This document shows, one piece after another, positions 1 through 54,469 of a stretch of DNA of 59,500 nt. The DNA lies in UHGV virus genome UHGV-0209830, one strand, 5' to 3'. Position numbers and translations under genes: made by a program. Below the pieces are notes generated by a model. It did no database searches, was not told where the DNA came from, and was given only the letters and a program-made list of their open reading frames with translations. This DNA is from a virus. Position 1 is the first letter of the stretch; the number at the start of each line of letters is the position of its first letter.

Positions 1-3000
1 TGTGGGGTTGTCGTAGCCGGAGCTGAAGACGCATAGCCCGCCATAGCCTGGCTGATTGCTAGAGACGGCTCCTGCTGAGGGGTGTTCGGTGATGGCGCTG
101 CAGATGAAAAGCCCTCCATAGCCTGGCTGATTGCTAGAGCCTGCTCCTGCTGGGGGGTTTTCGGTGCTGGCGCTGCAGATGAAAAGCCCGCCATAGCCTG
201 GCTGATTGCTAGAGCCTGCTCCTGCTGTGAAGTTTTCGGAGTAGAAGGGGATACTTGATCTCCCGGAAGTAGATCAATGATTTCTGTATCGTGATTAACA
301 GTGCGTTTTTGTTGTATGGCTGTTGCGATATCAGCCACTTGAGAAGCTTTTTTAAATCCAAAAGATTTACCGGTTAAGCCGGATATCTTTTCAGTAAGAG
401 CCTGATCCATTCCTTTCGCTTTTTCGGAAAGCGAAGATATAGAACCAAACGAAGTAGCCAACGCAAAATCCTTTACCAGGTCCAGACTTGTTCCAGCAAG
501 GCTGGTAGCCGCGCCGCCAAATAAATTACTTGCACCACTGATTCCGCTTTCATTTATTGCGATTAACCGCTCAAGCAAACTCGATGGAGAGCCGGTATTA
601 ACATCAGCGTTCTCTGGATTAATCGGTTGTGGTTGGTTACCTGTTTTTTGTGGCTTTTTGACTGCCTGGGCATGTTGTGCAACCTCAATTGGCTGTTGTG
701 TTGCTGTCGGAACGGCATTCAAAACTGGTTGAGCTGGAGATTTTCCATTAGCATATTTTACCTTGCGACCAACACTATATTGCGAATCGCGGGCAATTAG
801 CTGACCACCATTTTCTTTCTGAATTTTATTAATCCGCGCCAATGTTTCGTCAGAGAATTGTCCCTCCCATCGACCAGTGTTTGTGTTAAATGCTCCAAGT
901 GCGTTCTTAATGAACTCATTATTAACTGCCGGATTTCCGCCTTCTTTCGTCGCAATTGCACGAACTAATTGCGTCATAACCTCTGGTTTGCTGACATCTA
1001 TTTTTTCATTAGGCGATACACCAAGATATTTACTGACGTTATCAATATATTGGTTAGTATTGTTCTCATTTGGCGGTGCCCATTTTGAAATGATGCTGGA
1101 TACCGTCTGTAACTTCTGATATCCCGCTGCGGCACTGGTGCCGTTGTAATAGCTGGAAACCTGGTTTGCCAGTGCCCTGATCCCTTCTTCAGGTGTGTTA
1201 AATCGCGCAAAACGTTGTTCACCTTTTGCATTTGGCGATTCCAGCGTCGCCCCTTCCTGGTTGGCAAAAACAAGATTGCCGAGATTATTATTTCGGTAAT
1301 TGCGGTTTTTAGCGTTGCTGCCGCCAATATTCAGATCCGCTGCAATGGTGTTGTTGGCAGGTGAACTAAATTCAGTTGGAGAAGTATACCCGTGCTCACC
1401 AACTCCATCCTCGCCATTACGCCCACCTTGTAATTGTTCACCTAGAGAATGAATCGCATCGACAGTTTTTTTGGTGCCGTCTTCAACAGCTTTTTTTACT
1501 TGTTTCGTGTTTTCGTCAGTGGATAAAAATGTATCCTTAAGGCTACCAAAAACAGATTTGGTGACATCTACCGCGCCGTTAACACCACGAGCAATATCTC
1601 CGGTATCAAAATTCTGAAGTTTTTCACCTGCTCTTTCAAATCCTAGCGCAGAAATTCCTTTCCCTATCAAGTTCGTTGCGCCCGACACCAAGCCCCCCAT
1701 ATCGAGCACATTAGCTGTTGCGTAAGCCGTTTTTTGCTGTTCGGATACAGCATCATCGTCACTTAATCCAAAGGCTGCCTTTTGCGCATCTGTATCAGTG
1801 TAACCATCTATAGCGTCATATCCCGCCATAGCCAGCGATCCGATGATAGGGATAGCTCTTGCAGCTGTAGAAGCAGCTGATTTAACACCTATTTTTGCAG
1901 CACTTTTGAGGGCTACGGATTCGGTTTTTTTCTTTGCAACAGTTTCACCTGTTTTAACTGTGGCCTCTTCGGCAACAACACCTGCTGGCTTAACTGCCTT
2001 TGCTGTGTTTTTTGTTTCTTTAGCAATACCCTTAGATGCGTCGCTTGTGGTGCTGATGTCTTTGGCTTTACTAACCTTTGTTTTAACAGTCTTTGCAGCT
2101 CCGGCACCAGCTCCAGCAGCAGCGGTTCCGGCAGCGGCTTTTTCACCAACAGAAAGGGCTTTTTTCCCCAGATTGCGACCTTTCCTTTTCGGTTTGTTCC
2201 GTTTATTTTTACCAGCCTGATCGCCAATATTGATTTTATTTCTTCTGCTTGCTCGATTTCTCCAGAGATCACTTAAGCCGAACTTATTCCCAGAAGATAC
2301 TGATTTGCGTAGCTTAACTACTTCGTCGGAGACATTTTCCAGACCATCAATTATTTTGTTGTCATTGGTCTGAAGAATTTTTGTTTGCTCTTCTACTGCT
2401 TGTGCTGATTTTGTCTCAACAGCATTATTAAATGCTGTTGCAGAGGTTGCTTTTTGAGTATTAACCACCGCCGGATAAGTGATAGCTGGAGATGTCTCTT
2501 TCGAAGGTGAAGCCTCACCTTTCCCCTTTTCTACCCATTCTTTAAGAGATTCTGCTTTACCTGTGATCTCTTTAGTAATGTCGTACATGCCGCGAGCAGC
2601 CATCCACAACGGACCACCAGCGCCAACACCTGCGGCATCTGTTAAAGACTCTTCACTGGAAGACTGATTGCCATCTACCCCTATAATGGAGCCTAATTTC
2701 CGGAGGAAGCCTTCTTGTAGTTTGGCGTCGGCCTTATGTGCTTTCTGCCATTCTTTTTTTCTGGCTATATCTTCGTTGTTTTTCTGGGATACAAAGCGTC
2801 CGTTACTATCCCGAAGCGGTCCTTTTTGGCTTTGGGGGGATTGTGGTTCAAGAGGAGCAGAATTAGCGGCTACTGGCACAGAACCTTTCAACTTTTGGGC
2901 TGACTGGCGTGATGACGCAAAATGAACGCGCTCTGATGTGTTGGTTGCAACAATGAGACGTTCTTCTCCGTTGTTGATCAGCGTCCTCCCTTTTTTCATC

Positions 3001-3335
3001 GGAAGGCGTTTTATATATGGGTTAGCTTGGGTGTTCTTGGCATCATCAGAGACATAGGGTTCGCTTGCTATGAGTCTACGGGATAGTCTTTGACTTACTT
3101 TACCTTGATTTTCACCAAGTTGAGTTATAGACCCTCTACCAGAGAGAATGGCGTCTTTGATCTCAGCAAGAGCGTTAAGTTCGTTTGTGCTCGCCCCCTG
3201 AATAGCGTCAATTATTGCGATACGGTCTTTATTCTCTTTCAAAATAACCTCTCTTTTGCCAGCGGCGATCAACGTTTCCCGGCTTGAGCTTTGTATTTTT
3301 CTTCCAGGGCTTTTGACATATGGAGTGCTCGCCAT
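1..3335 (-). CDS. Large virion protein, 3' end outside window (over 1100 aa in window); tape-measure/injection (Sit-like) candidate
   Basis: Hand translation of minus strand from ATG near 3335 runs without stop to position 1; absent from ORF track because no stop in window; in-frame TGA just upstream of the ATG; C-terminal 25-aa tandem repeats. Confidence 0.6.
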   Translation of the reverse strand, partial: MASTPYVKSPGRKIQSSSRETLIAAGKREVILKENKDRIAIIDAIQGASTNELNALAEIKDAILSGRGSITQLGENQGKVSQRLSRRLIASEPYVSDDAKNTQANPYIKRLPMKKGRTLINNGEERLIVATNTSERVHFASSRQSAQKLKGSVPVAANSAPLEPQSPQSQKGPLRDSNGRFVSQKNNEDIARKKEWQKAHKADAKLQEGFLRKLGSIIGVDGNQSSSEESLTDAAGVGAGGPLWMAARGMYDITKEITGKAESLKEWVEKGKGEASPSKETSPAITYPAVVNTQKATSATAFNNAVETKSAQAVEEQTKILQTNDNKIIDGLENVSDEVVKLRKSVSSGNKFGLSDLWRNRASRRNKINIGDQAGKNKRNKPKRKGRNLGKKALSVGEKAAAGTAAAGAGAGAAKTVKTKVSKAKDISTTSDASKGIAKETKNTAKAVKPAGVVAEEATVKTGETVAKKKTESVALKSAAKIGVKSAASTAARAIPIIGSLAMAGYDAIDGYTDTDAQKAAFGLSDDDAVSEQQKTAYATANVLDMGGLVSGATNLIGKGISALGFERAGEKLQNFDTGDIARGVNGAVDVTKSVFGSLKDTFLSTDENTKQVKKAVEDGTKKTVDAIHSLGEQLQGGRNGEDGVGEHGYTSPTEFSSPANNTIAADLNIGGSNAKNRNYRNNNLGNLVFANQEGATLESPNAKGEQRFARFNTPEEGIRALANQVSSYYNGTSAAAGYQKLQTVSSIISKWAPPNENNTNQYIDNVSKYLGVSPNEKIDVSKPEVMTQLVRAIATKEGGNPAVNNEFIKNALGAFNTNTGRWEGQFSDETLARINKIQKENGGQLIARDSQYSVGRKVKYANGKSPAQPVLNAVPTATQQPIEVAQHAQAVKKPQKTGNQPQPINPENADVNTGSPSSLLERLIAINESGISGASNLFGGAATSLAGTSLDLVKDFALATSFGSISSLSEKAKGMDQALTEKISGLTGKSFGFKKASQVADIATAIQQKRTVNHDTEIIDLLPGDQVSPSTPKTSQQEQALAISQAMAGFSSAAPAPKTPQQEQALAISQAMEGFSSAAPSPNTPQQEPSLAISQAMAGYASSAPATTTP
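25..245. repeat. Tandem 75-bp direct repeats (about 3 units, phase 41/116/191), in-frame within the large virion gene
   Basis: Unit ccatagcctggctgattgctagag...gcgctgcagatgaaaagccc repeated; encodes repeats like PKTPQQEQALAISQAMAGFSSAAPA on minus strand. Confidence 0.8.
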
Positions 3336-3389
3336 TGTGGCAATTGTTCAACGTCACTAACGGGCTGATATCCATACAGAGTCAGGTTG

Positions 3390-4211
3390 TTAATAATGGT
3401 TAGCCATCCATTCAGATCTAATTGATGGGATAAACTCTCTATTGAGAAAGGGGACGTACAGTGTGGTTGTCACATCTGCACCCTCCTTAGCGTTTTTGCA
3501 ATGTTGCGGAGGCAGGATCAGTCGGCTTGAGCCTCTCTCAATAGACATTTTCAGGCCGTGGCGTAGGTCTTTTTGCATAAGCTGTATGCGAGCCACAAGC
3601 GGGGTAAATTCGGTTTCAAGCGCCATGCTTTCAATGATGTCAAAGCGTCGGTTAGCGGCCTGCGTGAAGTCCTCCGGATCGTCTTCAAGCGCCGTGCATA
3701 AAGCGAGTTCAGCAATTCGCATCCGTGCTACGCCAGCACTGTATTCGGGAGTTTTCATATCAGGAAGTGACGCTCGCATTCGTTCAAGGAGTTCCGCGCC
3801 TTTCCCGGTTAATGGTTTAAGTATCCAGTCAGTTGGTACTCCATTTACTGGTACGTTGGTTTTCACGTAAGGAGGTACAGTGAGTATTTCTACTGTTTGG
3901 GCCAGGTCGCTCAGGTTAATATCTGCATGATGCGTATTACCGCAGTGACTGCACTCATAGGAGTAGGTCATTACTGCATCGGGGCGCGAATTAACAAATA
4001 TCCACCAAAGAGCAGTTCTGCGGTCCTGAACTGTCCAGTTAGCACTGTCGTTAATTTCACCATCCTGCATAGAGTTAAGGTACTCTGTAGTCGTTGCCTC
4101 ATCTTCTGCCGGGTTCAGGTCAGAATATTTCAGCGCATCCTTCACGGTAGGGGCGTGGAACTGAATTTCTGTCTCAGGATGGGAAGGCAATGGGAATTTT
4201 GGAATGTTCAA
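3390..4211 (-). CDS. Hypothetical protein (273 aa)
   Basis: ORF track; TTG start as listed; between replicon and large virion gene. Confidence 0.5.
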   Translation of the reverse strand: MNIPKFPLPSHPETEIQFHAPTVKDALKYSDLNPAEDEATTTEYLNSMQDGEINDSANWTVQDRRTALWWIFVNSRPDAVMTYSYECSHCGNTHHADINLSDLAQTVEILTVPPYVKTNVPVNGVPTDWILKPLTGKGAELLERMRASLPDMKTPEYSAGVARMRIAELALCTALEDDPEDFTQAANRRFDIIESMALETEFTPLVARIQLMQKDLRHGLKMSIERGSSRLILPPQHCKNAKEGADVTTTLYVPFLNREFIPSIRSEWMANHY

Positions 4212-4339
4212 TTATTCCTCCGAAAAGCAGGTATCTGTTCATTTTCCAGAGGATAGGGAGTGTGTGATTTGCGATGGGGATTGAATGAAGATCTTTGCCG
4301 GTCGAGAAGCGATTATTGAGGGTGATTTTTACACCTTAA

Positions 4340-4450
4340 GTGACGCTACTCACATATCCACAGAGTATTTTTATAAACCTTTTTCCATTTTTAATCCTTT
4401 TTAGATCCTTTTTAGGCGTCGCTGGAGCCAGTAGTGGCGCGGGCTGTAGA
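4340..4450. promoter_or_regulatory. AT-rich origin region with DnaA-box-like atatccaca upstream of iterons
   Basis: AT-rich run with ccttttta repeats and 8/9 match to TTATNCACA immediately upstream of iteron array. Confidence 0.4.
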
Positions 4451-4457
4451 GGAGGCT

Positions 4458-4575
4458 GGTGTAAGATTTGCCCTCAATTAAATACGATCGGTGTAAGATT
4501 TGCCCTCAGAAGGTGTAAGATTTGCCCTCAAAAGGTGTAGTAATTGCCCTCAAAGTGGTGTAAAAATTGCCCTCA
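4458..4575. repeat. Origin iterons: five 19-bp direct repeats ggtgtaagatttgccctca (and variants) at about 22-32 bp phasing
   Basis: Copies near 4458, 4490, 4512, 4534, 4557 directly upstream of rep gene. Confidence 0.85.
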
Positions 4576-4599
4576 CCATTTGAAGGATCACACAGGGTT

Positions 4600-5355
4600 A
4601 TGAACAGAGCGGAATTAACAGCAAAAGCCGTCAGCCTGATTGAGTCAGCGACACCTATTAGTCGTAGTCTGGCACAAGCCAATGAGATCACGGAGGCTGC
4701 TTATCACCTGACTCGCGACCAAAAGCGACTGTTGTTTATTGTGGTGGGAAGACTTCGCTATGCTTCTAAGGATGGCGTTCTTGGTTCAGGTGCCTGTGAG
4801 TTGACGGTCAACGAATATGCAGAGATGTATAATTTGCCCTCTGCTGAAGCCAGCAAGGATATTCGTAAGGCCATTTCAGGGCTTAGCGAGAAGAAAGTTA
4901 CGATATATAACCCTGATGAATCGACCGAATCAGAAGACAGTTATGAGTCTTATCCCTGGATGATTAAGGATGCCTATTCACCACGGCGCGGGACTTACAT
5001 TATTCATCTTAATCCATATCTCATGCCGTTTTTTACTCTGCTTGATAAGAGATTCACAAGGCTGAATTTTACCGAAGTATCTCGCCTTACAAATCCTTAT
5101 TCTATGCGGCTTTATGAGTCCTTATGCCAGTACAGGAAGGATGATGGAAGCGGCTTTGCCATACTTGGCGTCGAATGGATGCGGGAGCGTTATGGGTTAC
5201 CAAAAAGCTATCAGCGGTATGCCGAATTTAAGAGAAGTTTTTTAACGAAGGCTGTAGCAGAGATTGAAAAAAATACAAAAATGAAAATAGTCTTCTCAGA
5301 GGTGACGGAAGGCGGCAAAGTTACCAGGATAAAATTTACCTATCAGCAGTCTTAA
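4600..5355 (+). CDS. repE: Replication initiator, F RepE-like (iteron-binding Rep)
   Basis: Recalled F RepE motifs conserved: EAAY..RDQKR, SAEASKDIR, ESYPWMIK, NPYLMPFF, NPYSMRLYESLCQYRK, LPKSYQRY; track ORF starts 4567 but ATG MNRAEL at 4600 lies after last iteron. Confidence 0.85.
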   Translation: MNRAELTAKAVSLIESATPISRSLAQANEITEAAYHLTRDQKRLLFIVVGRLRYASKDGVLGSGACELTVNEYAEMYNLPSAEASKDIRKAISGLSEKKVTIYNPDESTESEDSYESYPWMIKDAYSPRRGTYIIHLNPYLMPFFTLLDKRFTRLNFTEVSRLTNPYSMRLYESLCQYRKDDGSGFAILGVEWMRERYGLPKSYQRYAEFKRSFLTKAVAEIEKNTKMKIVFSEVTEGGKVTRIKFTYQQS

Positions 5356-5647
5356 GGGCAATTTTTACACCCCTCTCAAGGTGTAGAATTTGCCCTTAAC
5401 GATCGGCAATTGAGGGTAATTTTTACATCTTAATTGCATGTATCTTGTTATTAGCAAGTTGTGTTTTTATATAACGTATTGATATGTAAGGATTATGTAA
5501 AAATCGCCCTCAACCAATATCGTGCGTATCGTGCATTCTTATTGCGCTTTTTTATTATCATTCACTGTGTTAACTGATTGATATTATTGAAATATGTAAA
5601 GAATGCCTTCATTGCTGATGGATTGATGATGTAAAAAATGCCCTCAA
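5353..5647. repeat. Downstream iteron-like repeats in both orientations (incC-like copy-control array)
   Basis: taagggcaatttttacacc, ggtgtagaatttgccctta, tgagggtaatttttacatc, atgtaaaaatcgccctca, gatgtaaaaaatgccctca interspersed with AT-rich DNA. Confidence 0.7.
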
Positions 5648-5736
5648 CATTGCGCTACCTTCCCTACCCGCTATCGTTGAGGTCGTGGGTGCTGACGGGA
5701 AATGAGCAACCCTCCAGCACACATAATTAAAGCTAT

Positions 5737-6444
5737 TCAGAATTTGATCACTCCACTCACAGCCCCCTTTAACGCGCTTGTAGCCATGCCAGCGGCACCG
5801 TTGACCAAAGCAGAAACACCTGAGCCTGCGGATGTGTATTTCTGGAAAGTGATTGGATATGACAAGAACTCTGACACCTGGTCTCGTGAGCGGGTGATTT
5901 CCCCAAGTTGAGTGGGGAATACGCGCATTTCCTCTTCCAGTTCTTTACCGCCATCCTGAGTTACCCGGTAGAGCCGGATCTTCATTAGATATTCAGGAGG
6001 AAGGTTTATTGTTCCGTCCGGGTTTGTCACGCGGGAACGACGCTCTTTGAACCAGTTCATGATCTTGCCGTCTTCGGTATCCCTTACGGTCATCGTGACT
6101 GGTCCGGCGGTGACGTAGGTTGGCTTGCTGAACTCTACGCTACCTATCACCTTGTTTTCTGTCTCGATATTTCCGCTGCTGTAGGTGATATCCTTCACGA
6201 ACATATCGAAACCGTTCAGACCGTCCACTTCAACCGTCCACTGCCATCCCTGGGCGTAACGAATACGCATAGCGGCAGCAACAATATTTTTCCCGTAGGC
6301 AATATCGCTGCTGTAGTTCCCACTTACCCCGCCGCCGGATATTGCTTTATCCAGAATGTCGCTAATGAGGTTGCTGGTGAATGATTTTGTGTTAAATGAC
6401 AGTGCGGTGGTCAACGTTCTGCCAACGCTGCTGAAAATACTCAC
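5737..6444 (-). CDS. Hypothetical tail-associated protein (235 aa)
   Basis: ORF track; co-oriented in tail gene block. Confidence 0.45.
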   Translation of the reverse strand: MSIFSSVGRTLTTALSFNTKSFTSNLISDILDKAISGGGVSGNYSSDIAYGKNIVAAAMRIRYAQGWQWTVEVDGLNGFDMFVKDITYSSGNIETENKVIGSVEFSKPTYVTAGPVTMTVRDTEDGKIMNWFKERRSRVTNPDGTINLPPEYLMKIRLYRVTQDGGKELEEEMRVFPTQLGEITRSRDQVSEFLSYPITFQKYTSAGSGVSALVNGAAGMATSALKGAVSGVIKF

Positions 6445-6459
6445 TCTGCGCCTCCAGCG

Positions 6460-7020
6460 TTAAAAAATGGTAGCCCCCGGAATAATCGCCCGGTTTGAGG
6501 ACATTTTTTCTTCAATCTCCTGAACGCGGGCATATAACGTGGCTTCATCAGGTAGATCTGAGTAGTCAAATTTCCCGTCGATGGACGCTCGACGCTGGCG
6601 GGCGACATTTCTGACATTGATAAGCGCCTCCAGGTATTCTTCCAACATACCAATGATTGCAGGCGGCACTTGCCATTCGTCCAGTTTTCTGTCGCGGAGA
6701 TTAACCAGATACAGCATCCGAAAAGGCCATCGTTCTGAACCTGTCAGCTCTAATTCAATAAAGCCGGATAGTTCATCCGAATAGACCAAAAGGCCATTGC
6801 TGTCGGTGACGTGAACAAGGGATAGATAATCTTCCGGCAATGGGATTGCGGTGCCACCAGCTTTTTCGAGTTTTAGTGTCTTCACTACCCCGGCCCTGTC
6901 CTGATACGTGGTCAGCGCTTTAATCAGGAAGGCTTTCAGCGTGTCTTCTTCACGCACAAGCAGTGGGTTAAATCGCGTTTTAACGCTTTCTAATAATTCG
7001 GTTGGTGTCATCGTAGCCAC
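6460..7020 (-). CDS. Hypothetical tail-associated protein (186 aa)
   Basis: ORF track; tail gene block. Confidence 0.45.
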   Translation of the reverse strand: MATMTPTELLESVKTRFNPLLVREEDTLKAFLIKALTTYQDRAGVVKTLKLEKAGGTAIPLPEDYLSLVHVTDSNGLLVYSDELSGFIELELTGSERWPFRMLYLVNLRDRKLDEWQVPPAIIGMLEEYLEALINVRNVARQRRASIDGKFDYSDLPDEATLYARVQEIEEKMSSNRAIIPGATIF

Positions 7021-7065
7021 AACTCAAATTCAGAGGAAATCCCGTCCGGAAGGACGGGAAAGAGA

Positions 7066-7557
7066 TCACTCTACCCAGTTGTAAACAATACGCAGGGAAG
7101 GTTTCACGACTGCCGTTACGTCTTCGGAAGAGAAGTCCACGGCGTCGGAATACACTTTGCAGTGAGAGTAGGTACGAATCAGACCTTTGTGGTTGCCGCT
7201 GTTGGATTCAGCCGCCGCCTGGAAGGTGATATCAAGATACTCTTTGCCATAAACCATTTGTTTAACGGCTGCGAGTACATCCCCTTCGATTGTCTCAGAG
7301 CAGGTGACCTGGAACTCACCAGAGTTGCGCAATGGCCCGTGTTGGTTGAACTTCATGCCGCCGGGGGCATAATCCTCCACGTCTTCGCGTGTCATTTCCG
7401 GTAACTGAGTGGTACGAACAAGTACAGACAGTTTTTCGTAACCTTTAATAGTCATCCAGAATTCTGAACCAATAAGTTTTTCGCCTGCTGCCAGGTTTTT
7501 ATTAAACCGGGATTTCAGGAAGGCGATATCGGCTTTTGTATTTGCAAAACCGGACAT
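7066..7557 (-). CDS. Tail tube protein (T4 gp19-like)
   Basis: 163 aa, same length and C-terminal ..YNWVE pattern as recalled T4 gp19 (..DYWE); immediately downstream of sheath-like gene. Confidence 0.55.
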   Translation of the reverse strand: MSGFANTKADIAFLKSRFNKNLAAGEKLIGSEFWMTIKGYEKLSVLVRTTQLPEMTREDVEDYAPGGMKFNQHGPLRNSGEFQVTCSETIEGDVLAAVKQMVYGKEYLDITFQAAAESNSGNHKGLIRTYSHCKVYSDAVDFSSEDVTAVVKPSLRIVYNWVE

Positions 7558-7565
7558 AATTACTC

Positions 7566-8156
7566 CTACACAAAAACAGATGATATGTTGCTACGGTTAA
7601 TCGAGGTGTTTCCGCTGCATTGCAGGGTTACCGTGTTATGAGTGAAATAGCCTTCCGGTGTGCGCGGGGCGTCCAGTTGGTAACTCACGCTTTTGATAAC
7701 AACGTCGGTAAGGGCTATGTTCCTACCTATGTTTAACGTTACTGTCTCCGGGCGACGACCGAATGGCGCTACATTGTTCAGTTCCGGCGATTCCATCTTC
7801 AGCAATGCTGTAATGGCTGCGTTCACTTCAAGTTGCGCGTTCGTTGTCGCCATGAAATCAATTACCAGATTAAATTCAGGCGGTTGCTGACCTTCCCAAA
7901 CAAGCATTGAGTTGAAGAGGGTTTTTGTTGTTACGCCGGTTGCGGTCTGAAGCGTATCTGCAAGAGAGCCAGCCGCAGCGCTAATACCACCAAGCAAACC
8001 TCCTACTGACTGGTTTTCAAATGGTGATTGCCACATTGATGATAGTTCTGCGGTAGATCCTTCACCGATATAACCGACGACCATATCCTCTGAAGAGAGG
8101 ATATAAACCTTCATTAACGGACTTATTCCGTCAGGCATTATCGCGCCGCAAATCAA
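7566..8156 (-). CDS. Hypothetical virion protein (196 aa)
   Basis: ORF track; between sheath and tube genes. Confidence 0.45.
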   Translation of the reverse strand: MICGAIMPDGISPLMKVYILSSEDMVVGYIGEGSTAELSSMWQSPFENQSVGGLLGGISAAAGSLADTLQTATGVTTKTLFNSMLVWEGQQPPEFNLVIDFMATTNAQLEVNAAITALLKMESPELNNVAPFGRRPETVTLNIGRNIALTDVVIKSVSYQLDAPRTPEGYFTHNTVTLQCSGNTSINRSNISSVFV

Positions 8157-8205
8157 ACGCTATTTCTCCCTGGTAGAGGCCACCTTTGCAGGCGGCCTAT
8201 GTCAC

Positions 8206-8946
8206 TTACAAACCGCGTTTTTTGCGAATGCGCATTGATTTTTTGCGGTTGATATTCGCTACGGATGTATGTGCTTTGCGGCGTGCTTTTTTCAGCGCCT
8301 GTTTTTGCAATGACGTCATGCGGCGAGGACGCGGGCGTTTACGGATGATGGTAACCTTGCCATCACGAACCACTTTTTTACGTACCGCTTCCAGCATTGC
8401 GCTATCACCACCAGCAACGGTGTAAATGGCAATAGCTGTTTCCATCATGTCGGTGTCGCTTTCGGAAAGAGCGTCAAAAACACGTTCGGCAGCTGAGTCA
8501 TCTTCATCGTCGATCATTTCGGTTACATCGTCCTGATCAGCGCCAAGCGCAACAGCTGCATCAGCAAGAGCTGCGAGAGCATCGTTATAAGCATCGATTT
8601 GTTCATCGGTGAAATCGGTGCCTTCATCGATATCAGCCAGGCCAGCCATAGTGATTGCTAATGCATCAAATGAGTCAGCCTCCGGATCACCATCTTCAAC
8701 CCAACCAGCAAGCATGGACGCTGCCAGGCTGCGCATATCACCTTGTGCACGGGATTCAACCGCTTCCATCATCGCGGTTTCAATGTCGTCTTTGGGCTTT
8801 GGTTGAGTGTCCTTTCCTTTCTGTCCTGCGCTTTCCAGCATGGCGTTATCATTATTGTCCTGAGTGGATTTATCACCGCTTTCAAAGCAGCCAGAACCGA
8901 AAATCGCACGCATAAACGGATCAGCAGTATAATTTTTCATATTCAA
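8206..8946 (-). CDS. Acidic hypothetical virion protein with basic C-terminal tail (246 aa)
   Basis: ORF track; very D/E-rich with KR-rich C-terminus. Confidence 0.45.
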   Translation of the reverse strand: MNMKNYTADPFMRAIFGSGCFESGDKSTQDNNDNAMLESAGQKGKDTQPKPKDDIETAMMEAVESRAQGDMRSLAASMLAGWVEDGDPEADSFDALAITMAGLADIDEGTDFTDEQIDAYNDALAALADAAVALGADQDDVTEMIDDEDDSAAERVFDALSESDTDMMETAIAIYTVAGGDSAMLEAVRKKVVRDGKVTIIRKRPRPRRMTSLQKQALKKARRKAHTSVANINRKKSMRIRKKRGL

Positions 8947-8983
8947 ACCTCTCTCCCCCGCATCATTTAGCGGGGGTTATAAA

Positions 8984-10642
8984 TCAGCGCATCAGAATTG
9001 GCTTACCGACGATTCGGCGAGCTGTACCGGTCGGACAAACAGACCAGGCCACTTCCCACAGATCGATGTCCTTTTGGACAACCTGAACAACATATGGATC
9101 TTCACCCTGGGACTTGTCACGTGGAGTAACCAGCGCACCGGCTGCAACGTAACGGTCAAGCAATTCAGTCATTGCTTTCATTAGCGCTTCTTTGGTAATG
9201 CCATCCGGTTCGTGCTTAATCGCCTGAGCAACTTCGTAGAAATTGCGTGCGATAGCGTTCATCAGGGACGATACGTGCTGGAATCGCAGATAGTTGTTTT
9301 TGCTGTAAGTTGTTAAAGAGTCGTCAATGTAAACGGACCCGTCAGCAGCAACTGAAACTGGATTAATGCGCGCAAGAACGAACGCTTCACGATCAACTGC
9401 ACCGATATTTGGAATTCGGGCAATGTTCTGTCGTTCAATAATCGCGCGTGATATACCTGCCGGTGCGTAATGCCAACCACCAACATCCGGTACCAGCGCC
9501 ACTCCTTTTGCCTTCGCTACGAATGCGTCGCAGCTAATGCCATAGACGACATTCATTCCAGTGAAAGTATCTCGGCAGGAGAGCGGGAAGTAGTAACGGC
9601 TTGGTTGATGTGAGCCGCCAAAACTATGGCTTTTCGCTTCTGAAATAGCGTTTTCAGGTGTCTGGTTGCCCTTCAGGTCATAGAACATGTCTACGCGAAC
9701 ATCTTCAGCCAGCTTTTTGATTGCGGCTAAGGCGGATGCGTCATAACAACCCAATGACAGCAATGCGGTGTAATTAACCTCTGAAGCTTCGAGAACCTTT
9801 AATGCTTCCAGATAGTCTGCAGCGGCAATTTCGGACAGATTTCCATCAGTACCACCTTCAAAAGCCACATCCTCAAAAATGAGTTGAGCAGCGGATGCTT
9901 CTGCATTATCTGCCAGTACGGCACCAATGCGAGTGGACTGGCTTTCAAGCAGTGTCGGAATCCATGCTGGTTGGCCCATGTCGTTGGTGCCTTCTGGATT
10001 GAAAGACACCTGGTGGCTTTCCAGCACCTCAATGGACCCATCGGTTTGTTTTTCTTTCAGCGTCAGCGTAAAGAGTTTGCTTTCTTCATCATCGCGAGTT
10101 AGTGATAACGTGCGATTTTGAGATGCATCACCATCTTTGATGAAGAATAATGCCTTCTCTCCACCTTTAATCTGGGGCGTCTCTTTGGGTGTGAAGGTCA
10201 CTGATTGAGTCGTTGCAGTTGGAGCAACACCAACGCTTAATGTGTCACCTAGATTTGCTGTGGTTTCAGTAGGTTCAACGGAAAGTTCTTTGCTCGCCTT
10301 TGCCGCTTTTGCTTTGCCCACAACGGAAACAGAAATACCCGGCACCTTCATGTCTTTAGCGCAAACTCGAACGACATATCCAGAGCCGCCTTTTACTGCA
10401 CGCTCCACGTGGCGATATGGTTCAAATGCCGCGCCCAGGCGAGGGTGAATCGGTGAACCTAATACGCTTTGATAAGTCGTATCGTCAACTTTCAGTACCT
10501 TACCCGGTGCGCCACGACGCGATATTACAAGCCCAGCAAAGACGGATGCGCCACCGCTGGTATTGGTGAGGGTAGCGTCAGCATTTACTGACATTACAGC
10601 AACGCCAGCTGCCTGCCCTACCGAAAAACTAATCTTATTCAT
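8984..10642 (-). CDS. Putative contractile tail sheath protein (552 aa)
   Basis: Size, position upstream of tube gene, C-terminal region resembling sheath C-terminal domain pattern. Confidence 0.5.
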   Translation of the reverse strand: MNKISFSVGQAAGVAVMSVNADATLTNTSGGASVFAGLVISRRGAPGKVLKVDDTTYQSVLGSPIHPRLGAAFEPYRHVERAVKGGSGYVVRVCAKDMKVPGISVSVVGKAKAAKASKELSVEPTETTANLGDTLSVGVAPTATTQSVTFTPKETPQIKGGEKALFFIKDGDASQNRTLSLTRDDEESKLFTLTLKEKQTDGSIEVLESHQVSFNPEGTNDMGQPAWIPTLLESQSTRIGAVLADNAEASAAQLIFEDVAFEGGTDGNLSEIAAADYLEALKVLEASEVNYTALLSLGCYDASALAAIKKLAEDVRVDMFYDLKGNQTPENAISEAKSHSFGGSHQPSRYYFPLSCRDTFTGMNVVYGISCDAFVAKAKGVALVPDVGGWHYAPAGISRAIIERQNIARIPNIGAVDREAFVLARINPVSVAADGSVYIDDSLTTYSKNNYLRFQHVSSLMNAIARNFYEVAQAIKHEPDGITKEALMKAMTELLDRYVAAGALVTPRDKSQGEDPYVVQVVQKDIDLWEVAWSVCPTGTARRIVGKPILMR

Positions 10643-10709
10643 GCTGGTTCTTATCCTCTAAAGCGAGAGAACGAGGCAAGGCTGCCCACGGTTAATGGGC
10701 AGCCTCTGA

Positions 10710-10988
10710 TCAGGATTCGCTTACCGTGAAGGTATCGCCTACGGTTACTTCTTTCGTAGTTGGTTCAACACTGACGGTGCTTACGCTTTTATGTGCCTCC
10801 CTAACAGTGACTGTGCACTGTGCGGTTTTATTGCCGTCATTTGTTTTGATTGTCAGCACTGCCTCCCCGGCCTTAAGAGCGGTACATGTAGTGCCATCAA
10901 CCTGGACAATATCAGGGTGATCTGACTCAACAGTGAAAGATTTGTCTGTTGCGTCAGGTGGCGTGATAGTTACTTGAATGTTTGCCAT
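10710..10988 (-). CDS. Ig-like (Big_2-type) domain protein, possible decoration protein
   Basis: 92 aa beta-rich Ig-like sequence; good RBS aggag before ATG. Confidence 0.5.
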   Translation of the reverse strand: MANIQVTITPPDATDKSFTVESDHPDIVQVDGTTCTALKAGEAVLTIKTNDGNKTAQCTVTVREAHKSVSTVSVEPTTKEVTVGDTFTVSES

Positions 10989-11134
10989 TTTTTCTCCTGG
11001 ACGCCCCTTAATCAGGGGCGTGTTTTTGCCTTACTTCTGCTTTGTTTTTTTCTGTGCCTTTGAAGTGTTCGCGGCGATAGTTTCACCTTCATCTACGTCA
11101 AGTGACGTTGGTGATACCGACACGTTCGCCACCA

Positions 11135-12832
11135 TCACTTTTTTTCGTTAACCTTGCCTGTCAGCATGTCGATAGCACCTTCTTTGGCACGAGTCAGACG
11201 CAGGCGGGTGAAGTAGTTTTCACCGTTGCGAGGATGTACTTCGTTGATAGCACTGCCCCAGAGAGTGGTACGGTTAACGAGAGACGGATTGGTTTCGTGA
11301 ACGTAAGGGATTGCTGGGACTGCATCACCAGCAATCAGACCGGCTTTACCGATGCCTTCGCCACGCCCATAGAAGAAGATGTCATCCAGCCCGAAGTCAT
11401 ATCCCTGTGCCAGGAATTGCTCACAGACAGGTTGCGGCACTTCGTAAATACGAATCGTGCCAAACAGGGTGCCGATGTACTGTACATACGGCGACTGAAC
11501 GTAACCTGGTGCGATCTGGAAGTGCTGTGGAGGCAGAGAGCGCAGGAAGTTCGCGGCGTCACTACCAGCAAAGCCGCCACGAATACCCGTTGTCAGGGTA
11601 CGATTTGCCATTTCTTGAGACAGAGCGTTTACTGCGTGACGCAGGAGGCCGACCCAGGACTCATAGTTTTGAGCTTCCGGCAGAGCCACATCAAATTCAC
11701 GACCATAAACGGTATGGAATACCAGGGTGCGCAGACGCATGATGTCGGTTTCATGGGAGATCCAGTTACGCATCGCGGAGAACTGAAGTGCCGCTAATTC
11801 AAGGCCGTGCTCACGGCTTAAATCGGATGCGGACATTACCGTGTGTTCGGAAGCAAGTACGTACTGGGACGGACGAACTTCGTACTTACGCATAGCCTGG
11901 TTGATCACCGGAATCAGGCTTGGATTGCGCTCGATGTTAATTTCGACCTGAACAGCAATTTCAGTACCTACTGGCGGAGCCTGGGTAAATGTAATGTCAA
12001 TGACACCAGTGTCATAGGCAACTTTGGCAGTCGCTGAGAAAGTATTACCTTTGCTGTCTTTAGCATTGAAATAAAGGTTGCCATCGCCGTCGTCAACTTT
12101 GGACGGTTTGCGGTTGATCAGCAGTTTGTTATAACCAGCGCGAAGCGGGCAGGATTGTCCCTCAAATTGTTTGATGTTGAACTGGAAGGTTTTGGTGCTG
12201 CCATCCCCTTTAGTGGAAAGGGCATACAGGCGCTTCATTTGAGAATAAACACCAGCTGACTGCATATTCAGTTCGTCACCTTGGTTGAAGGTGCCGAATT
12301 TTGTGCCTGCTACGTTGACCAGTTCATAAATATTTGACTCGTCACGATCACAAGGAACAAAAGTACAGGCATCACTGGTAGCAGCGCCCAGAGAAGCAGG
12401 CAGAATTAGAGCAGCATATTGAGCAACTTTCATTACGCCGTCAGAGCTACGCATTGATTGCGCGACAGACTCAAACATTGCCTTACCCGTGCCTTCATGG
12501 GTATCACTGGCACATTCAGTCATCAGGCGTTCAAGAGCCAGGTGTGCGTTCGCCAGGATGTCACTTGCCGGGTAATGACCATGTTGACGTTTATACTCAT
12601 GCAGAGACATAGCCCACCCACCAGTGATCTGACGAGCGACCTCTGGATTTACGCCTTCAAACATAGGCACTTTCTGGATTGCTTTATCCAGGTTTTCCAT
12701 CATTACTGCCTGGTCAGCAATCATGTTGCCTGCTGCATCGGTGGTCGGATCGACGGTCATAGCCATGACGCTTGCCGCCCGATTCATAATCTCGCGCTCG
12801 CGATCACGAGCTGGCTGAATGTTTTTATTCAC
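11135..12832 (-). CDS. Putative major head protein precursor (565 aa); assignment tentative
   Basis: Large ORF heading the structural operon; GTG start; size compatible with the P1 major head precursor as I recall it. Confidence 0.4.
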   Translation of the reverse strand: MNKNIQPARDREREIMNRAASVMAMTVDPTTDAAGNMIADQAVMMENLDKAIQKVPMFEGVNPEVARQITGGWAMSLHEYKRQHGHYPASDILANAHLALERLMTECASDTHEGTGKAMFESVAQSMRSSDGVMKVAQYAALILPASLGAATSDACTFVPCDRDESNIYELVNVAGTKFGTFNQGDELNMQSAGVYSQMKRLYALSTKGDGSTKTFQFNIKQFEGQSCPLRAGYNKLLINRKPSKVDDGDGNLYFNAKDSKGNTFSATAKVAYDTGVIDITFTQAPPVGTEIAVQVEINIERNPSLIPVINQAMRKYEVRPSQYVLASEHTVMSASDLSREHGLELAALQFSAMRNWISHETDIMRLRTLVFHTVYGREFDVALPEAQNYESWVGLLRHAVNALSQEMANRTLTTGIRGGFAGSDAANFLRSLPPQHFQIAPGYVQSPYVQYIGTLFGTIRIYEVPQPVCEQFLAQGYDFGLDDIFFYGRGEGIGKAGLIAGDAVPAIPYVHETNPSLVNRTTLWGSAINEVHPRNGENYFTRLRLTRAKEGAIDMLTGKVNEKK

Positions 12833-44607: not shown

Positions 44608-44960
44608 CGACGCCCCCTTGCCGGATATCGACCTGCATTAGTATCCGGTGCAATAAAGCCGGTAGTGGGGCGAGTGAAAGCGAGATTAATCTTCTCGACC
44701 ATAGTGCGATAATTTTCCTGATAGTGGGCCAGGAGTTTTTCGGCGGCAATGATGGTTACTTTCCGGACGTAGCTTTCTGCTTCCTCCAGATTTCGCCAGT
44801 TTTTTTCGAGGGTAAACACAGGGACGGCCTCAAGCCCGGTCATGATGCCGAATACAACGACAGCATGACTGTTCTTAACACCAGCGGCGAAGGTTACGGT
44901 GTAACCATCCACCGTGAAGCGTCTTGATTCCGTGATTTGACTCTGCAAAGCACCCTCCAA
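44604..44960 (-). CDS. Hypothetical protein (118 aa)
   Basis: ORF track. Confidence 0.45.
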   Translation of the reverse strand: MEGALQSQITESRRFTVDGYTVTFAAGVKNSHAVVVFGIMTGLEAVPVFTLEKNWRNLEEAESYVRKVTIIAAEKLLAHYQENYRTMVEKINLAFTRPTTGFIAPDTNAGRYPARGRR

Positions 44961-45002
44961 AATAGGCGAGGGTACTTTACAGCAAAGATATCAATCTAAA
45001 AA

Positions 45003-45019
45003 GATGTGTTAGAAATTTA
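45003..45019. promoter_or_regulatory. Operator-like motif copy (gatgtgttagaaattta)
   Basis: Dispersed motif family, upstream of ORF starting 44960. Confidence 0.4.
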
Positions 45020-45021
45020 AT

Positions 45022-46050
45022 TTACGAATCCATCAAGCGGCTATTAGCCCCCACAGACACACCGCCACGGCGCAGATACCGCATAAGTGTTTCCGGTTTC
45101 TTCCAGGTTCCTTCCTGCATGATCTCCACCATAGACACCTGCTTTTCAGCCATATCAATAGCGGCCCCGACGCGTGCACTATGCCCGGTCCACGTCCGGT
45201 ATCTTCCTTTGTTTGGCGTAGCATCTCTTTTATTCAGCAACCCCCAGGCGTCGCTGAATATTTTCTCCATTGCAGGTGCAGTAAGGGGCGTTGTCGTAAT
45301 CCTGGCCTTATTGCTACGGTGTATCGGCGGGAACAGCACCGCGTCAGGATGTTCACGAAGCCCGGAAACATCCAGCCAGTCATTCAGCACAGCAGTAGTG
45401 CGACGGGAAAGCACCTTATCAAGCCCGGCGGCGGTCGTTATTGTCTTCGTGTGTGAAATATGTAGCGTGACAGTGTCACCTGTTTGGTCCAGATCTCCTA
45501 CACGAATACGCGAGATTTCCGACATACGCATCAGCGTATTGTATGCAACAAAGAGAAAAGCCCGGTTGCGCTGGTCCACCAGCCGTTCTGACCTGGACAG
45601 CAGGACGTCGAGCAGTTTCAGGTCGTCCCACCGCAACGGTATAGCCTGGCCTGTTCGCTCGCCTTTTTCCGTTGCCGCTTCACGCCGGATGCGCCGCATG
45701 GCCAGAGACACACTTTTATCGTCCGACAGCGGCGGGAGGCCACATTGCGAAAGCAGCATGTTAAGCATGGCATAGTGCTTATCAATGGTGGTCGAAGCCA
45801 GATCGGCATCATGCAACTGAAGAAAATACTCGCGGGCCATTTCTGGTGAGATCGGAAACCAGGCAAGCTGGCGAGCGTGACACCAGCGCGCCCAGGAATG
45901 AAACACCAACCGGAGGTCGCGCAGAGTATTCGGCGCATAAGCCCCCTGGTCATTCATGAACCGCATAAAGTTTTCTGCGGCTTCCTGGTACTCTTTGCCA
46001 ATGTTGCGCAGAAAACCACCGGAACTGCCAGAGATAATCAACTCACTCAT
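45022..46050 (-). CDS. cre: Cre-like tyrosine site-specific recombinase
   Basis: Roughly half-identical to recalled P1 Cre including WTGHSARVGAA.DMA and RIRV.D motifs. Confidence 0.85.
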   Translation of the reverse strand: MSELIISGSSGGFLRNIGKEYQEAAENFMRFMNDQGAYAPNTLRDLRLVFHSWARWCHARQLAWFPISPEMAREYFLQLHDADLASTTIDKHYAMLNMLLSQCGLPPLSDDKSVSLAMRRIRREAATEKGERTGQAIPLRWDDLKLLDVLLSRSERLVDQRNRAFLFVAYNTLMRMSEISRIRVGDLDQTGDTVTLHISHTKTITTAAGLDKVLSRRTTAVLNDWLDVSGLREHPDAVLFPPIHRSNKARITTTPLTAPAMEKIFSDAWGLLNKRDATPNKGRYRTWTGHSARVGAAIDMAEKQVSMVEIMQEGTWKKPETLMRYLRRGGVSVGANSRLMDS

Positions 46051-46201
46051 GGAACTATTTCACCTCTATATACAGATGACGCTACGCGAAAAATATAAAA
46101 ATGACAGGGTAGCTATAAGTTAATTTTCAAAATACAAGCCTTTGATTCGAAGCACGTATTTTCAGTGATGTCAATACTGTTCATCTACACATGATTATAG
46201 T

Positions 46202-46235
46202 CTAACTTTAAATAATGCCAATTATTTAAAGTTAT
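46202..46235. other. lox-like recombination site (13-bp inverted arms around 8-bp spacer)
   Basis: ctaactttaaata-atgccaat-tatttaaagttat; arms share TAACTT and TA with recalled loxP arm ATAACTTCGTATA; about 170 bp upstream of cre. Confidence 0.65.
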
Positions 46236-46415
46236 AAAATGCCGATTTTTTTGTAATCCATCATAGATTGATGATGGACAGTAACACGTTGCCTTCATGG
46301 TCTTTAATTTGCGAAGTGTGGTTTCAACGGTTGGTTTTCTAACGTTGATGACAAAAAAATCATAGTCCGATCCTTTACTCGCTCTGTTATTCGACATAAA
46401 TTTGTCATAGTAATT

Positions 46416-46432
46416 TTATGTTAGAAAACTAA
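46416..46432. promoter_or_regulatory. Operator-like motif copy upstream of ORF 46444
   Basis: ttatgttagaaaactaa. Confidence 0.4.
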
Positions 46433-46443
46433 ATCGCGTAGGA

Positions 46444-47484
46444 ATGATGAGTATGAAGTCGATCGAGAAAGAGTACAAACGGTTCCTGCAAACCGCAGAA
46501 CGGTGGAAAGAGCTGGTGGTCGCAAACTCTGTTTTCCATGATACCAGTTATGCTGGTGAGGAATTCCGCCATGTTGCATTAACGCATGACCAAAACATAT
46601 TAGAAGAAGCTGAAAAATGTCTTGCTGAATGGAAAGCCTTCGTTGACATGTGCCGCGATGCCGACGGCAAAGCGTCGAACATTGTTGAGTCCGTATATTC
46701 TCCGATCCCATTCATCATTGAGGACACCAATCAAAGCACGCATGTCGTTGTGCAAAGCGCTACAACAACACGTGCATTTACACGTGAACAATTGCTAAAA
46801 AAATACGACAAAATCATAAAGAAAAGCCTGAAAAATAGGGTTTTTTCTCAAATCGTAGGTGCTCTTGAAGAAGAACAGCGCTTCTTTGAAGCTGAGCCTG
46901 AAGGCGAGATCTACCGGGCGCGTAAAGAGGCATATACAGATGTTGTGCTGACAACAAACATCGAAGGCAGTAATGCCCTTTCTCGCTTTAGAGTTGGCGC
47001 ACATGGCGCATTGGTTTTCGCAAGACTACCGAAGACAACGATCCCCGTTGTCAATAATGTTGGTGAACGCCGGAGCATTACAATTTATTCTGGCGTCGAA
47101 TCGGTACCTTGCAGCCTTCTCGGCGATTTTAACTTATATCGTGTTCGTGACCTGGAAAAACACCAGCCAAGCTACGTTGCGAAGTCGTATATCTTAAGGA
47201 ACATCGATATTCGCAATGAAAGCCTTAAGCAGAAATCCGCTAAGATGCTGGAGGATGCCGATCCGGCTATTCGCCATATCATTGAGCGTAAGATACGCAC
47301 ATCACGTGAAGCAATGGCAAGGCTGGATAAAATGGATCTGGAATTGTTAGACGTAATGATGGCCTCTGGAGACGACCTGACCGGCATTAAACTGAATGAA
47401 GCTCGTAAAAAATACGGCAAAGCAATCGAAGAACGTTACGGATACACATTCCCCCAAACGCAGTACGCCGCGAAGCTCTGGTAA
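46444..47484 (+). CDS. Hypothetical protein (346 aa); candidate C1-type repressor by position only
   Basis: Between lox/cre and pacB, convergent with pacB, operator-like motif upstream; no sequence-level confirmation. Confidence 0.3.
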   Translation: MMSMKSIEKEYKRFLQTAERWKELVVANSVFHDTSYAGEEFRHVALTHDQNILEEAEKCLAEWKAFVDMCRDADGKASNIVESVYSPIPFIIEDTNQSTHVVVQSATTTRAFTREQLLKKYDKIIKKSLKNRVFSQIVGALEEEQRFFEAEPEGEIYRARKEAYTDVVLTTNIEGSNALSRFRVGAHGALVFARLPKTTIPVVNNVGERRSITIYSGVESVPCSLLGDFNLYRVRDLEKHQPSYVAKSYILRNIDIRNESLKQKSAKMLEDADPAIRHIIERKIRTSREAMARLDKMDLELLDVMMASGDDLTGIKLNEARKKYGKAIEERYGYTFPQTQYAAKLW

Positions 47485-47511: not shown

Positions 47512-49020
47512 TTATATATCCAGATCCGGCATTTCGATATCCGCCAGAACCTGATCTCGGAAAGTTGCCATTTCGGCACCAATATCTTCATTAGCAGGCA
47601 CATAGTCCACCAGCATAGTGAAGCAGTAGGTATCCCATCGGTCAGGCGATTTGATGTTTAGCTTTTGCCGCATGTGCTCTTTGCGCATCATCGCCATTTT
47701 CCCTTCTTCATTCAGTAAAAAGGGGATTTTTGACGCTTGCTCTGCCGTTTTAGGGTCACTGTCTATCCGCATACGCCCTGACTTTATGGCATCACGCGCC
47801 ATGATATTTGCGTAGGCACGCTGATTAACAAATCGCTCCCTGTCTTTGTTCGCAAACATGGGTTTTCCCCACCGAATACGTACCGGGTTCGCACCACGAC
47901 GCACCAACTGCGCACACGTATCAGAACCAAAACCATCAGCATCAACCGCGATTGTTATATTCGGGTATTTTTCCGGCGTACATTCGTTATATATGAAGTC
48001 AGCAAAGGCCAATGGGTCCATAGTGCCAGGCATCTCCATTACCTTAAAGTTAACAACGCGCCGCTTATCCCTGTGACCTGATACCTTGCAGATGTTGAGG
48101 ACCGACTTATCTCGCCCATTACCAACGTCAGCCGTTGCCACCCATCCCCAGTTTTTCTCCAACAACACCTTGCGGCGAGCAGAGCGATCGCATTCATCAC
48201 GACCAAGCAAATAGCCGTTAATTTCTCGTGGGAACTGACCAAGCACCTTGACCATGTACTCAATAGAATCGCGCCCGCCATATTCCAGAAGCTTCTCCTT
48301 GATGAATTGTGGTGTGACGAACGGTGATTCTTCCGAGTTAAGAACAATTGCTGTCCAGATCCCTTTCGGGTTGTCTGGGGTTTTTGCTCGAGAATGGTGC
48401 GAATCGTAGAAATAACCACTTGGCCTTGTTGGCTGGGATAGCATCAACATCCGGTTATCTTCTTCAGTAAGAGCACCGGTCATTACGCCGATCGCCTTAT
48501 CAGATATACCAGATGCTTCATCCAGAATTAGAAGCAAATGTGCCGCGTGTTCCCCCGCCAGCGCTTCTTCGTTGCCGAGTCGATAACCTTTGCAGAGAAC
48601 TTCCCAAATCCCCTTACGGGAGCGCTCATAAAACATGGTGTCAGAGAGGACAAAATAGGTCTGCAACCACCCATGACGCTTAACTGCATTCGCCCAATAC
48701 TGTTTAACGTATTTGAATACGCCTGTTTTTACCTGGCCTATCTTGTTAGCAACAATGATGACACGGGCATCGGGGAACAGGATCATAAAAATCAACAGCA
48801 ACATCGCGGTAAGGGACGACTTCCCCGTTCCGTGTCCGGACGTGACGGTAGTCCTACTCCCCGTTTCCTGTACGGACTGAATGATCTGCTGCTGCTGCGG
48901 GGAGGGGAACATCCCAAAAATATCGACAACAGCCTGGGTAAAGTTGTAGCGGTATTTGATTACCATATCGCGCCAGCGTGGATCTCTGGTGACGCATTTA
49001 ACCTTGCGCCCGCCAGCCAT
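47512..49020 (-). CDS. pacB: Terminase large subunit (PacB-like)
   Basis: Walker A GHGTGKS, large-terminase size, directly downstream of pacA-like gene. Confidence 0.8.
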   Translation of the reverse strand: MAGGRKVKCVTRDPRWRDMVIKYRYNFTQAVVDIFGMFPSPQQQQIIQSVQETGSRTTVTSGHGTGKSSLTAMLLLIFMILFPDARVIIVANKIGQVKTGVFKYVKQYWANAVKRHGWLQTYFVLSDTMFYERSRKGIWEVLCKGYRLGNEEALAGEHAAHLLLILDEASGISDKAIGVMTGALTEEDNRMLMLSQPTRPSGYFYDSHHSRAKTPDNPKGIWTAIVLNSEESPFVTPQFIKEKLLEYGGRDSIEYMVKVLGQFPREINGYLLGRDECDRSARRKVLLEKNWGWVATADVGNGRDKSVLNICKVSGHRDKRRVVNFKVMEMPGTMDPLAFADFIYNECTPEKYPNITIAVDADGFGSDTCAQLVRRGANPVRIRWGKPMFANKDRERFVNQRAYANIMARDAIKSGRMRIDSDPKTAEQASKIPFLLNEEGKMAMMRKEHMRQKLNIKSPDRWDTYCFTMLVDYVPANEDIGAEMATFRDQVLADIEMPDLDI

Positions 49021-52302: not shown

Positions 52303-52378
52303 TGGTGGCCCCTACCGGACTTGAACCGGTGACCGTGCGATTATGAGTCGCCAGCTCTAACCACTGAGCTAAAGGGCC
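52303..52378 (-). tRNA. tRNA with CAT anticodon, tRNA-Ile2 (lysidine) type
   Basis: 76 nt cloverleaf with encoded CCA; anticodon loop CTCATAA; near-identical to recalled E. coli ileX; Met not excluded. Confidence 0.8.
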
Positions 52379-53360: not shown

Positions 53361-53578
53361 TAATCAATTTCCTGGATTTTTTTGCGAAAAAAGACTACTG
53401 CAAAAGCCGGGTAAATGAGCGCGAGAAGGACTCCCAACAATACAAGTATTGTGCTGTCAGATGAGATCATATTTGGCAAAAGCCAAACATACAGAACCAT
53501 TGACACAATCAAACAGAGGACGACATAAATATATAGCCGCACCCATAGCGTTCGACATTTGTTCGGATTGTTCTGCAT
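53360..53578 (-). CDS. Small two-TM membrane protein (72 aa)
   Basis: ORF track; stop overlaps start of SPFH gene. Confidence 0.45.
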   Translation of the reverse strand: MQNNPNKCRTLWVRLYIYVVLCLIVSMVLYVWLLPNMISSDSTILVLLGVLLALIYPAFAVVFFRKKIQEID

Positions 53579-53841: not shown

Positions 53842-53928
53842 TGGCGGAGAGTAATGGAATCGAACCATCATCGCTTGCGCAATGGGACGGTTTTCAAGAC
53901 CGCTTGAGCACCATGCTCCCTACTCTCC
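53842..53928 (-). tRNA. Atypical type-II tRNA-like gene with TGA anticodon (tRNA-Ser(UGA)-like)
   Basis: 87 nt; acceptor GGAGAGT/ACTCTCC, G discriminator, CCA, T-loop TTCGATT, anticodon loop CTTGAAA; D-arm shortened and variable arm irregular. Confidence 0.45.
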
Positions 53929-54393: not shown

Positions 54394-54469
54394 TGGTGCC
54401 GGTTAACGGACTCGAACCGCTGACATCCTGCTTACAAGGCAGGCGCTCTACCAACTGAGCTAAACCGGC
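54394..54469 (-). tRNA. tRNA-Thr (TGT anticodon)
   Basis: 76 nt cloverleaf, anticodon loop CTTGTAA, T-loop TTCGAGT, encoded CCA. Confidence 0.8.

Follow-up and report, generated by a model that had tools for sequence, protein, structure and literature searches.

The window analysed here, a 59,500-nt (59.5-kb) stretch of the viral genome UHGV-0209830, carries a recombinase gene and a short palindrome next to a repressor gene and two terminase genes. The recombinase gene, dre, is an ORF on the minus strand (45022..46050, the end coordinate including the stop codon) with an ATG start, and encodes a Cre-type tyrosine site-specific recombinase of 342 aa. A Shine-Dalgarno-like GAGGTG read from the sequence (46061..46066, minus strand) lies 10 nt upstream of the ATG. 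The palindrome is a rox site, the 32-bp target of Dre (46203..46234); it lies 152 nt upstream of the dre ATG, in the intergenic region between dre and c1. The c1-type prophage repressor gene (46444..47484, plus strand) is an ORF divergent from dre, and was identified by collinearity and by its position, which is that of c1 in the phage D6 record AY753669 and of the 'prophage repressor' D6_1 in MF356679. It is followed by the terminase genes pacB (47512-49020) and pacA (49020-50384), both on the minus strand and assigned from ORFs, D6 annotation and collinearity. They lie 1.3-4.2 kb from rox, as in D6 and P1. The interval singled out by an initial annotation of this DNA frames the dre-rox module closely, since its left end is exactly the dre stop codon and its right end falls one base past the palindrome.

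The protein belongs to the Cre family, as the initial annotation had proposed. Its residues 158-327 match the Pfam profile PF00589 (Phage_integrase) with 61.4 bits (E = 1.2e-16; the cut-off is 27.1 bits), while the Pfam N-terminal SAM-like domain scores 21.6 bits, slightly below its cut-off of 22.3. All 17 matches of a PDB sequence search with Dre are P1 Cre or engineered Cre derivatives. The best of them, a Cre chain, aligns with residues 22-341 (E = 1.8e-68) and includes the N-terminal DNA-binding domain. There is no structure of Dre among these 17 matches, and the residue mapping used in this work comes entirely from alignment. The identity with P1 Cre is 41.3% over aa 23-341 (tblastn) and 40.5% in a global alignment (137/338), which is less than the half estimated initially. 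Published values for Dre and Cre are 37-41% (PMC4777119, PMC3553980, PMC7438526). A cross-check of the catalytic set in the global alignment showed that all seven Cre residues are kept: R173, E176, K201, H289, R292, W315 and the tyrosine nucleophile Y324 of Cre correspond to R175, E178, K202, H290, R293, W316 and Y325 of Dre. R175, H290, R293, W316 and Y325 are also given as catalytic residues of Dre in a previous study (PMC4777119). The protein therefore shows what is looked for in this family, i.e. a PF00589 profile above threshold, the catalytic residues, full-length similarity to Cre and an adjoining palindrome.

The palindrome is real and far above chance. It consists of a left arm TAACTTTAAATAAT (46203-46216), an asymmetric spacer GCCA (46217-46220) and a right arm ATTATTTAAAGTTA (46221-46234), which together form a perfect 14-4-14 inverted repeat and an exact match to the rox target sequence TAACTTTAAATAATGCCAATTATTTAAAGTTA. 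This 32-mer has a single copy in the window, and none of 100 dinucleotide-preserving shuffles gave a match at three or fewer mismatches. The site is base-for-base the same as the misc_recomb feature of AY753669 described as 'region of crossover (rox) site for Dre recombinase'. The expectation of a lox-like site with its own arm sequence is thus borne out: the site is rox, and loxP has no match at three or fewer mismatches anywhere in the window. The proposed loxP geometry of 13-bp arms and an 8-bp spacer holds in part. When the site is read in the loxP register (46202..46235), it becomes CTAACTTTAAATA-ATGCCAAT-TATTTAAAGTTAT and is identical to loxP at 22 of the 34 positions. This register is used in some papers, but the perfect symmetry of the site is 14-4-14, and the 13-bp arms are complementary at 12 of 13 positions, the outermost C and T being unpaired. 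The flanking bases outside the 14-4-14 core differ among relatives, with the right-hand one being T or G. The literature is divided in the same way. Rox is given as 14-4-14 in two studies (PMC4777119, PMC12331466), and another handles rox and loxP as 13-bp half-sites that differ at three positions (PMC7438526). Mutagenesis of the spacer indicated that the crossover region of rox includes the first base of each arm and has a length probably near that of loxP (PMC4777119). Given these half-sites and this crossover length, the 13-8-13 description is not functionally unreasonable.

The pair formed by this gene and this site is already known. Dre/rox of phage D6 was first described by Sauer and McDermott in 2004, as cited in later work (PMC4777119, PMC3553980), and has become a widely used genome-engineering tool; the finding is real, not new. 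The window Dre is identical to D6 Dre (AAV84949.1, annotated in GenBank as 'dre' and 'dre: tyrosine recombinase') at 339 of 342 residues (99.1%) without gaps, and the D6 protein is the same in two independent D6 records (AY753669; MF356679, orf118). The exact window protein is also public (EOU4430203.1, DAP60915.1) and falls in a 90%-identity cluster of 845 members. The novelty implied by the initial annotation therefore falls away, since rox, too, is identical and the protein was already in NCBI.

The identity extends well beyond the module. When the region 44900-46450 was searched by megablast against annotated phage records, Escherichia phage D6 was the only match, with 97% DNA identity. 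The intergenic region between dre and c1 also aligns at 97%, and includes the identical 32-bp rox. At the scale of the whole window, blastn revealed collinearity with positions 41579..91159 and then 1..12795 of D6, with 90% of the window covered at 90-98% identity; the D6 record opens at the centre of rox. D6 and the window share the length of Dre (342 aa), the 152-nt spacing between rox and the ATG and the gene order dut-orf3-orf2-dre-rox-c1-pacB-pacA-lpa. They differ by approximately 3% at the DNA level, by the replacement of several accessory genes elsewhere in the window, and by the base that precedes the one left of rox, where the window reads tcTAAC and D6 reads ccTAAC. This collinearity implies a D6-like plasmid prophage as the source of the window. 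The same module is found in 144 PLSDB plasmids (118 from Escherichia, 16 from Salmonella, nine from Shigella and one from Enterobacter), and in 124 of 5426 complete E. coli genomes, where 124 of the 127 places are on plasmids of approximately 90 kb. The best DNA match is 98.8% identical, hence the prophage itself is absent from PLSDB and from the complete E. coli collections. We conclude that the region is almost certainly the dre-rox module of a phage-D6-like plasmid prophage, i.e. of a P1-like phage-plasmid, from Escherichia, Shigella or Salmonella.

The replaced accessory segments can be located. The segment 52521-53611 has no counterpart in D6 and occupies the place of tciA/tciB. Its minus strand encodes an SPFH/Band_7 protein of 275 aa, whose N-terminus resembles that of a lipoprotein (52533-53360; Pfam E = 7.8e-31), and has a hydrophobic ORF of 72 aa (53360-53578). 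The segment 29780-30902 stands in place of positions 72.3-75.1 kb of D6 (simB, pmgF, anti-repressor, icd), and has two ORFs, of 207 aa (29722-30345) and 130 aa, with signal-peptide-like N-termini; neither has a match in Pfam. The first of them begins 58 nt within D6-homologous sequence. ARAGORN called four tRNA genes in the window, all on the minus strand (52303-52378, 53842-53928, 54394-54469 and 54472-54547), with anticodons CAU, UGA (Ser), UGU (Thr) and GUU (Asn), and also called them at the homologous positions of D6 (locus L004, 6084-7850). Three of these are annotated in the GenBank record of D6, on the plus strand, and the CAU tRNA has no annotation there. In P1-like phages the CAU tRNA may be an Ile (lysidine) tRNA. 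An imperfect inverted repeat of 24 nt (46244-46267 and 46338-46361, 79% complementary, 70 nt apart) is found between rox and c1. Two elements of P1 were searched for across the whole window. The P1 C1 operator consensus ATTGCTCTAATAAATTT had no match at three or fewer mismatches, which indicates that the intergenic region between dre and c1 lacks P1-type C1 operators, and the P1-type pac site, a cluster of TGATCA/G hexamers, had no such cluster.

We then considered whether the three substitutions affect specificity. The reference behaviour is well established: D6 Dre recombines rox and is inactive on loxP, and Cre is inactive on rox (PMC7438526, PMC12331466, PMC3553980). The discrimination between the two sites has been mapped to K43, R259 and G263 of Cre, and changing these residues to R, P and K makes Cre active on rox (PMC4957104, PMC7438526). 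The initial annotation had suggested that the DNA-contacting residues be aligned to those of P1 Cre, and this alignment proved informative: the counterparts in the window Dre are R44, P259 and K263, i.e. the rox-type residues, and they are invariant in the ten natural Dre variants compared. We also mapped onto Dre a further list of positions, which we take to be the other DNA contacts in Cre-loxP structures. Nearly all the positions aligned with these DNA-facing residues are invariant in the ten natural variants, and between the window Dre and D6 Dre there is no change at any position aligned to a DNA-contact residue of Cre. Specificity for rox over loxP rests largely on R44, P259 and K263.

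The substitutions themselves (Q102, Q160 and G270 in the window; H, L and V in D6) correspond to R101, I158 and R270 of Cre in the alignment. One could argue that H102Q, L160Q and V270G shift the target preference, which would make this allele a functionally new Dre/rox variant and a further orthogonal system. The protein is indeed not identical to D6 Dre, and close relatives carry natural rox variants, with spacers CCCC and ACTA and with changes in the arms. We regard this as very improbable. The rox of the window is that of D6, and R44, P259, K263 and the other aligned contact positions are unchanged. Moreover, the three substituted positions are polymorphic among relatives that share the same rox: Q102 is the majority allele among the nine relatives, H being found in D6 and one plasmid only; Q160 is common to the window and its closest plasmid relative; position 270 is G, V or A; and the Q102, Q160 and G270 alleles occur together with an unchanged rox. 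Finally, the main specificity paper (PMC7438526) was searched for two of the three corresponding Cre residues, R101 and R270, and mentions neither. There is thus no sign in the sequences of an altered specificity caused by the three substitutions. Because the specificity residues and rox are identical to those of D6, we infer that this allele would behave as D6 Dre does, orthogonality included. The suggestion of an orthogonal pair of the Cre/lox type is in this way supported, in the form of Dre/rox, with an orthogonality that is published for D6 Dre and expected for the allele.

The likely mechanism follows from the homology with Cre. One Dre monomer would bind each arm of rox, and two sites would synapse within a Dre tetramer. 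Tyr325, helped by R175, E178, K202, H290, R293 and W316, would cut one pair of strands to form 3'-phosphotyrosine links; strand exchange would give a Holliday junction, which would isomerize before the second pair of strands is exchanged. The asymmetric centre GCCA would set the direction of the site. All seven catalytic residues are conserved, and for this reason the chemistry of Dre should be that of Cre. The general path, from one monomer per arm and tetramer synapsis to the 3'-phosphotyrosine and the Holliday junction, is described in the literature (PMC4777119, PMC7438526).

The P1 system is the natural point of comparison for the role of the module. Cre/loxP resembles Dre/rox in fold family, in catalytic residues, in having a simple palindromic target near the gene and in the c1 and pacAB neighbourhood. 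In P1, Cre/lox resolves plasmid multimers and cyclizes terminally redundant infecting DNA. By analogy with these functions, and given the conserved synteny, Dre/rox likely turns multimers into monomers for the stable inheritance of the low-copy prophage, and likely also circularizes terminally redundant linear DNA upon infection. The two systems nevertheless differ in several respects. Their half-sites differ at three internal positions (CGT in loxP, TAA in rox), the symmetry of loxP is 13-8-13 and that of rox is a perfect 14-4-14, and neither enzyme is active on the site of the other, as published (PMC12331466, PMC7438526). In P1, cra and three mapped promoters stand between lox and cre, with 435 nt from the centre of lox to the ATG; the window, unlike P1, has no cra and 152 nt between rox and the ATG. 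Another related pair is the Panto/pox system of Pantoea sp. aB. Panto is a Cre-type recombinase reported to be 52% identical to Dre; pox differs from rox at one arm position, Panto recombines rox and Dre recombines pox (PMC4957104). We liken the two through this published description, and they differ in host, in spacer and in the protein, Panto being more distant from Dre.

The name of the Pfam family, 'Phage integrase', and the three chromosomal places among the 127 found in complete E. coli genomes could suggest that the recombinase is a phage integrase and the palindrome the attP core for chromosomal integration, instead of a site for plasmid resolution or cyclization; we reject this reading, which is hardly credible given that 124 of the 127 places are on plasmids, that the collinear D6 is a plasmid prophage with replication and partition genes, that rox is a simple symmetric lox-type site without arm-type repeats, and that D6 Dre recombines a pair of identical minimal rox sites with no accessory factor when placed in heterologous hosts, mammalian cells and B. 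subtilis among them (PMC3553980, PMC12331466). The three chromosomal places may themselves be integrated copies or assembly artefacts.

To place the module in its natural diversity, we compared the window with nine relatives, i.e. eight plasmids and D6, whose dre genes range from 99.6% to 79% DNA identity. The distance between rox and the ATG is exactly 152 nt in all nine; six of them match the 32-bp rox of the window at every position, even where the identity of dre is down to 79%. The site also remains unchanged where the left flank, on the dre side, is down to 75% identity and the right-hand sequence, on the c1 side, is unrelated. A core that is 100% identical amid such diverged flanks argues for selection on the site itself. 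The variants that exist are of several kinds. The closest plasmid relative (L006, NZ_JBSWAS010000004.1, 2104-2135) has a CCCC spacer, a Shigella dysenteriae plasmid has TAGCTTTAAATAAT-ACTA-ATTATCTAAAGTTA, with one change per arm, and one E. coli plasmid has a single change in the right arm. We also scanned IMG/VR for both rox arms with any spacer of 4 nt and retrieved 23 loci. The spacer is GCCA in 21 of them, including one locus without dre that reads TGGC in its stored orientation; the other two have CCCC and GCTA. In the 20 IMG/VR loci with both dre and rox, the orientation of the spacer relative to dre is constant. The locus with GCTA (L019) has identical rox arms, and its adjoining Dre homologue is 70% identical. 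The arms are thus constant across Dre proteins down to approximately 70% identity. Altogether, natural variants of rox are found at loci L006, L026, L019, L011 and L007. This variation fits the published cross-recombination by Panto of a near-identical site.

Six relatives (L007 and L009-L013) show a mosaic joint at the right edge of rox, at positions 46234/46235 of the window. In these, similarity on the c1 side is lost directly past the final base of rox (50-62% identity over the first 50 nt), and the dre side is 73-95% identical, with rox at 87.5-100%. A joint exactly at the recombination site fits Dre-mediated exchange of modules between heteroimmune D6-like plasmids.

A last feature overlaps rox. 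A candidate sigma-70 promoter facing dre (46194..46221, minus strand) matches the consensus at 11 of 12 positions. Its -35 hexamer TTGGCA (46221..46216) is formed by the rox spacer and adjacent arm bases, and its -10 hexamer TATAAT (46199..46194) follows after a 16-nt spacer. This is the only match of at least 11 of 12 in the 59.5-kb window, where approximately one is expected by chance. Amid diverged flanks, seven of the nine relatives keep TATAAT intact as the -10, and the other two match it at five of six positions. In the closest relative, the CCCC spacer brings the -35 down to three of six matches (TGGGGA) and the rox arms are kept. Given the conserved -10, we infer that dre may be transcribed from a promoter that overlaps rox. 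A literature search on autoregulation of Dre found nothing relevant. The presence of a candidate -35 within rox makes it plausible that Dre bound at rox regulates its own gene; in P1, the cre promoters lie away from lox.

The same elements could be taken further, to mean that the palindrome is mainly an operator or promoter element for dre and c1 and that recombination is secondary. The candidate -35 in the spacer and the conserved -10 are in line with this, but experiments have established that recombination takes place at precisely this 32-bp sequence (PMC4777119, PMC3553980, PMC12331466), the promoter match is within the chance expectation for a window of this size, and in the closest relative it is the -35 that is weakened and the arms that are retained. 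A primary regulatory role is accordingly most improbable. The two roles are not mutually exclusive.

The value of this locus as a discovery is small, since Dre/rox has been a standard orthogonal partner of Cre/loxP since 2004. Its practical value is for annotation: plasmid records as a rule call this gene no more than 'tyrosine-type recombinase/integrase', and the name dre can now be assigned to it and rox marked at 46203-46234. In addition, the natural spacer variants could be mined as ready-made heterospecific rox sites. A broader reading, which we put forward tentatively and hold to be unlikely as a whole, would join a -35 in the rox spacer and autorepression by Dre with spacer alleles acting as incompatibility types and a mosaic joint left by Dre exchange. 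If it were true, Dre bound at rox would repress its own synthesis, an arrangement not seen in P1. The spacer alleles GCCA, CCCC, GCTA and ACTA would limit the Dre-mediated co-integration of co-resident D6-like plasmids and would also tune the expression of dre, and the sharp mosaic joint at rox would be a trace of modules exchanged by Dre in nature.
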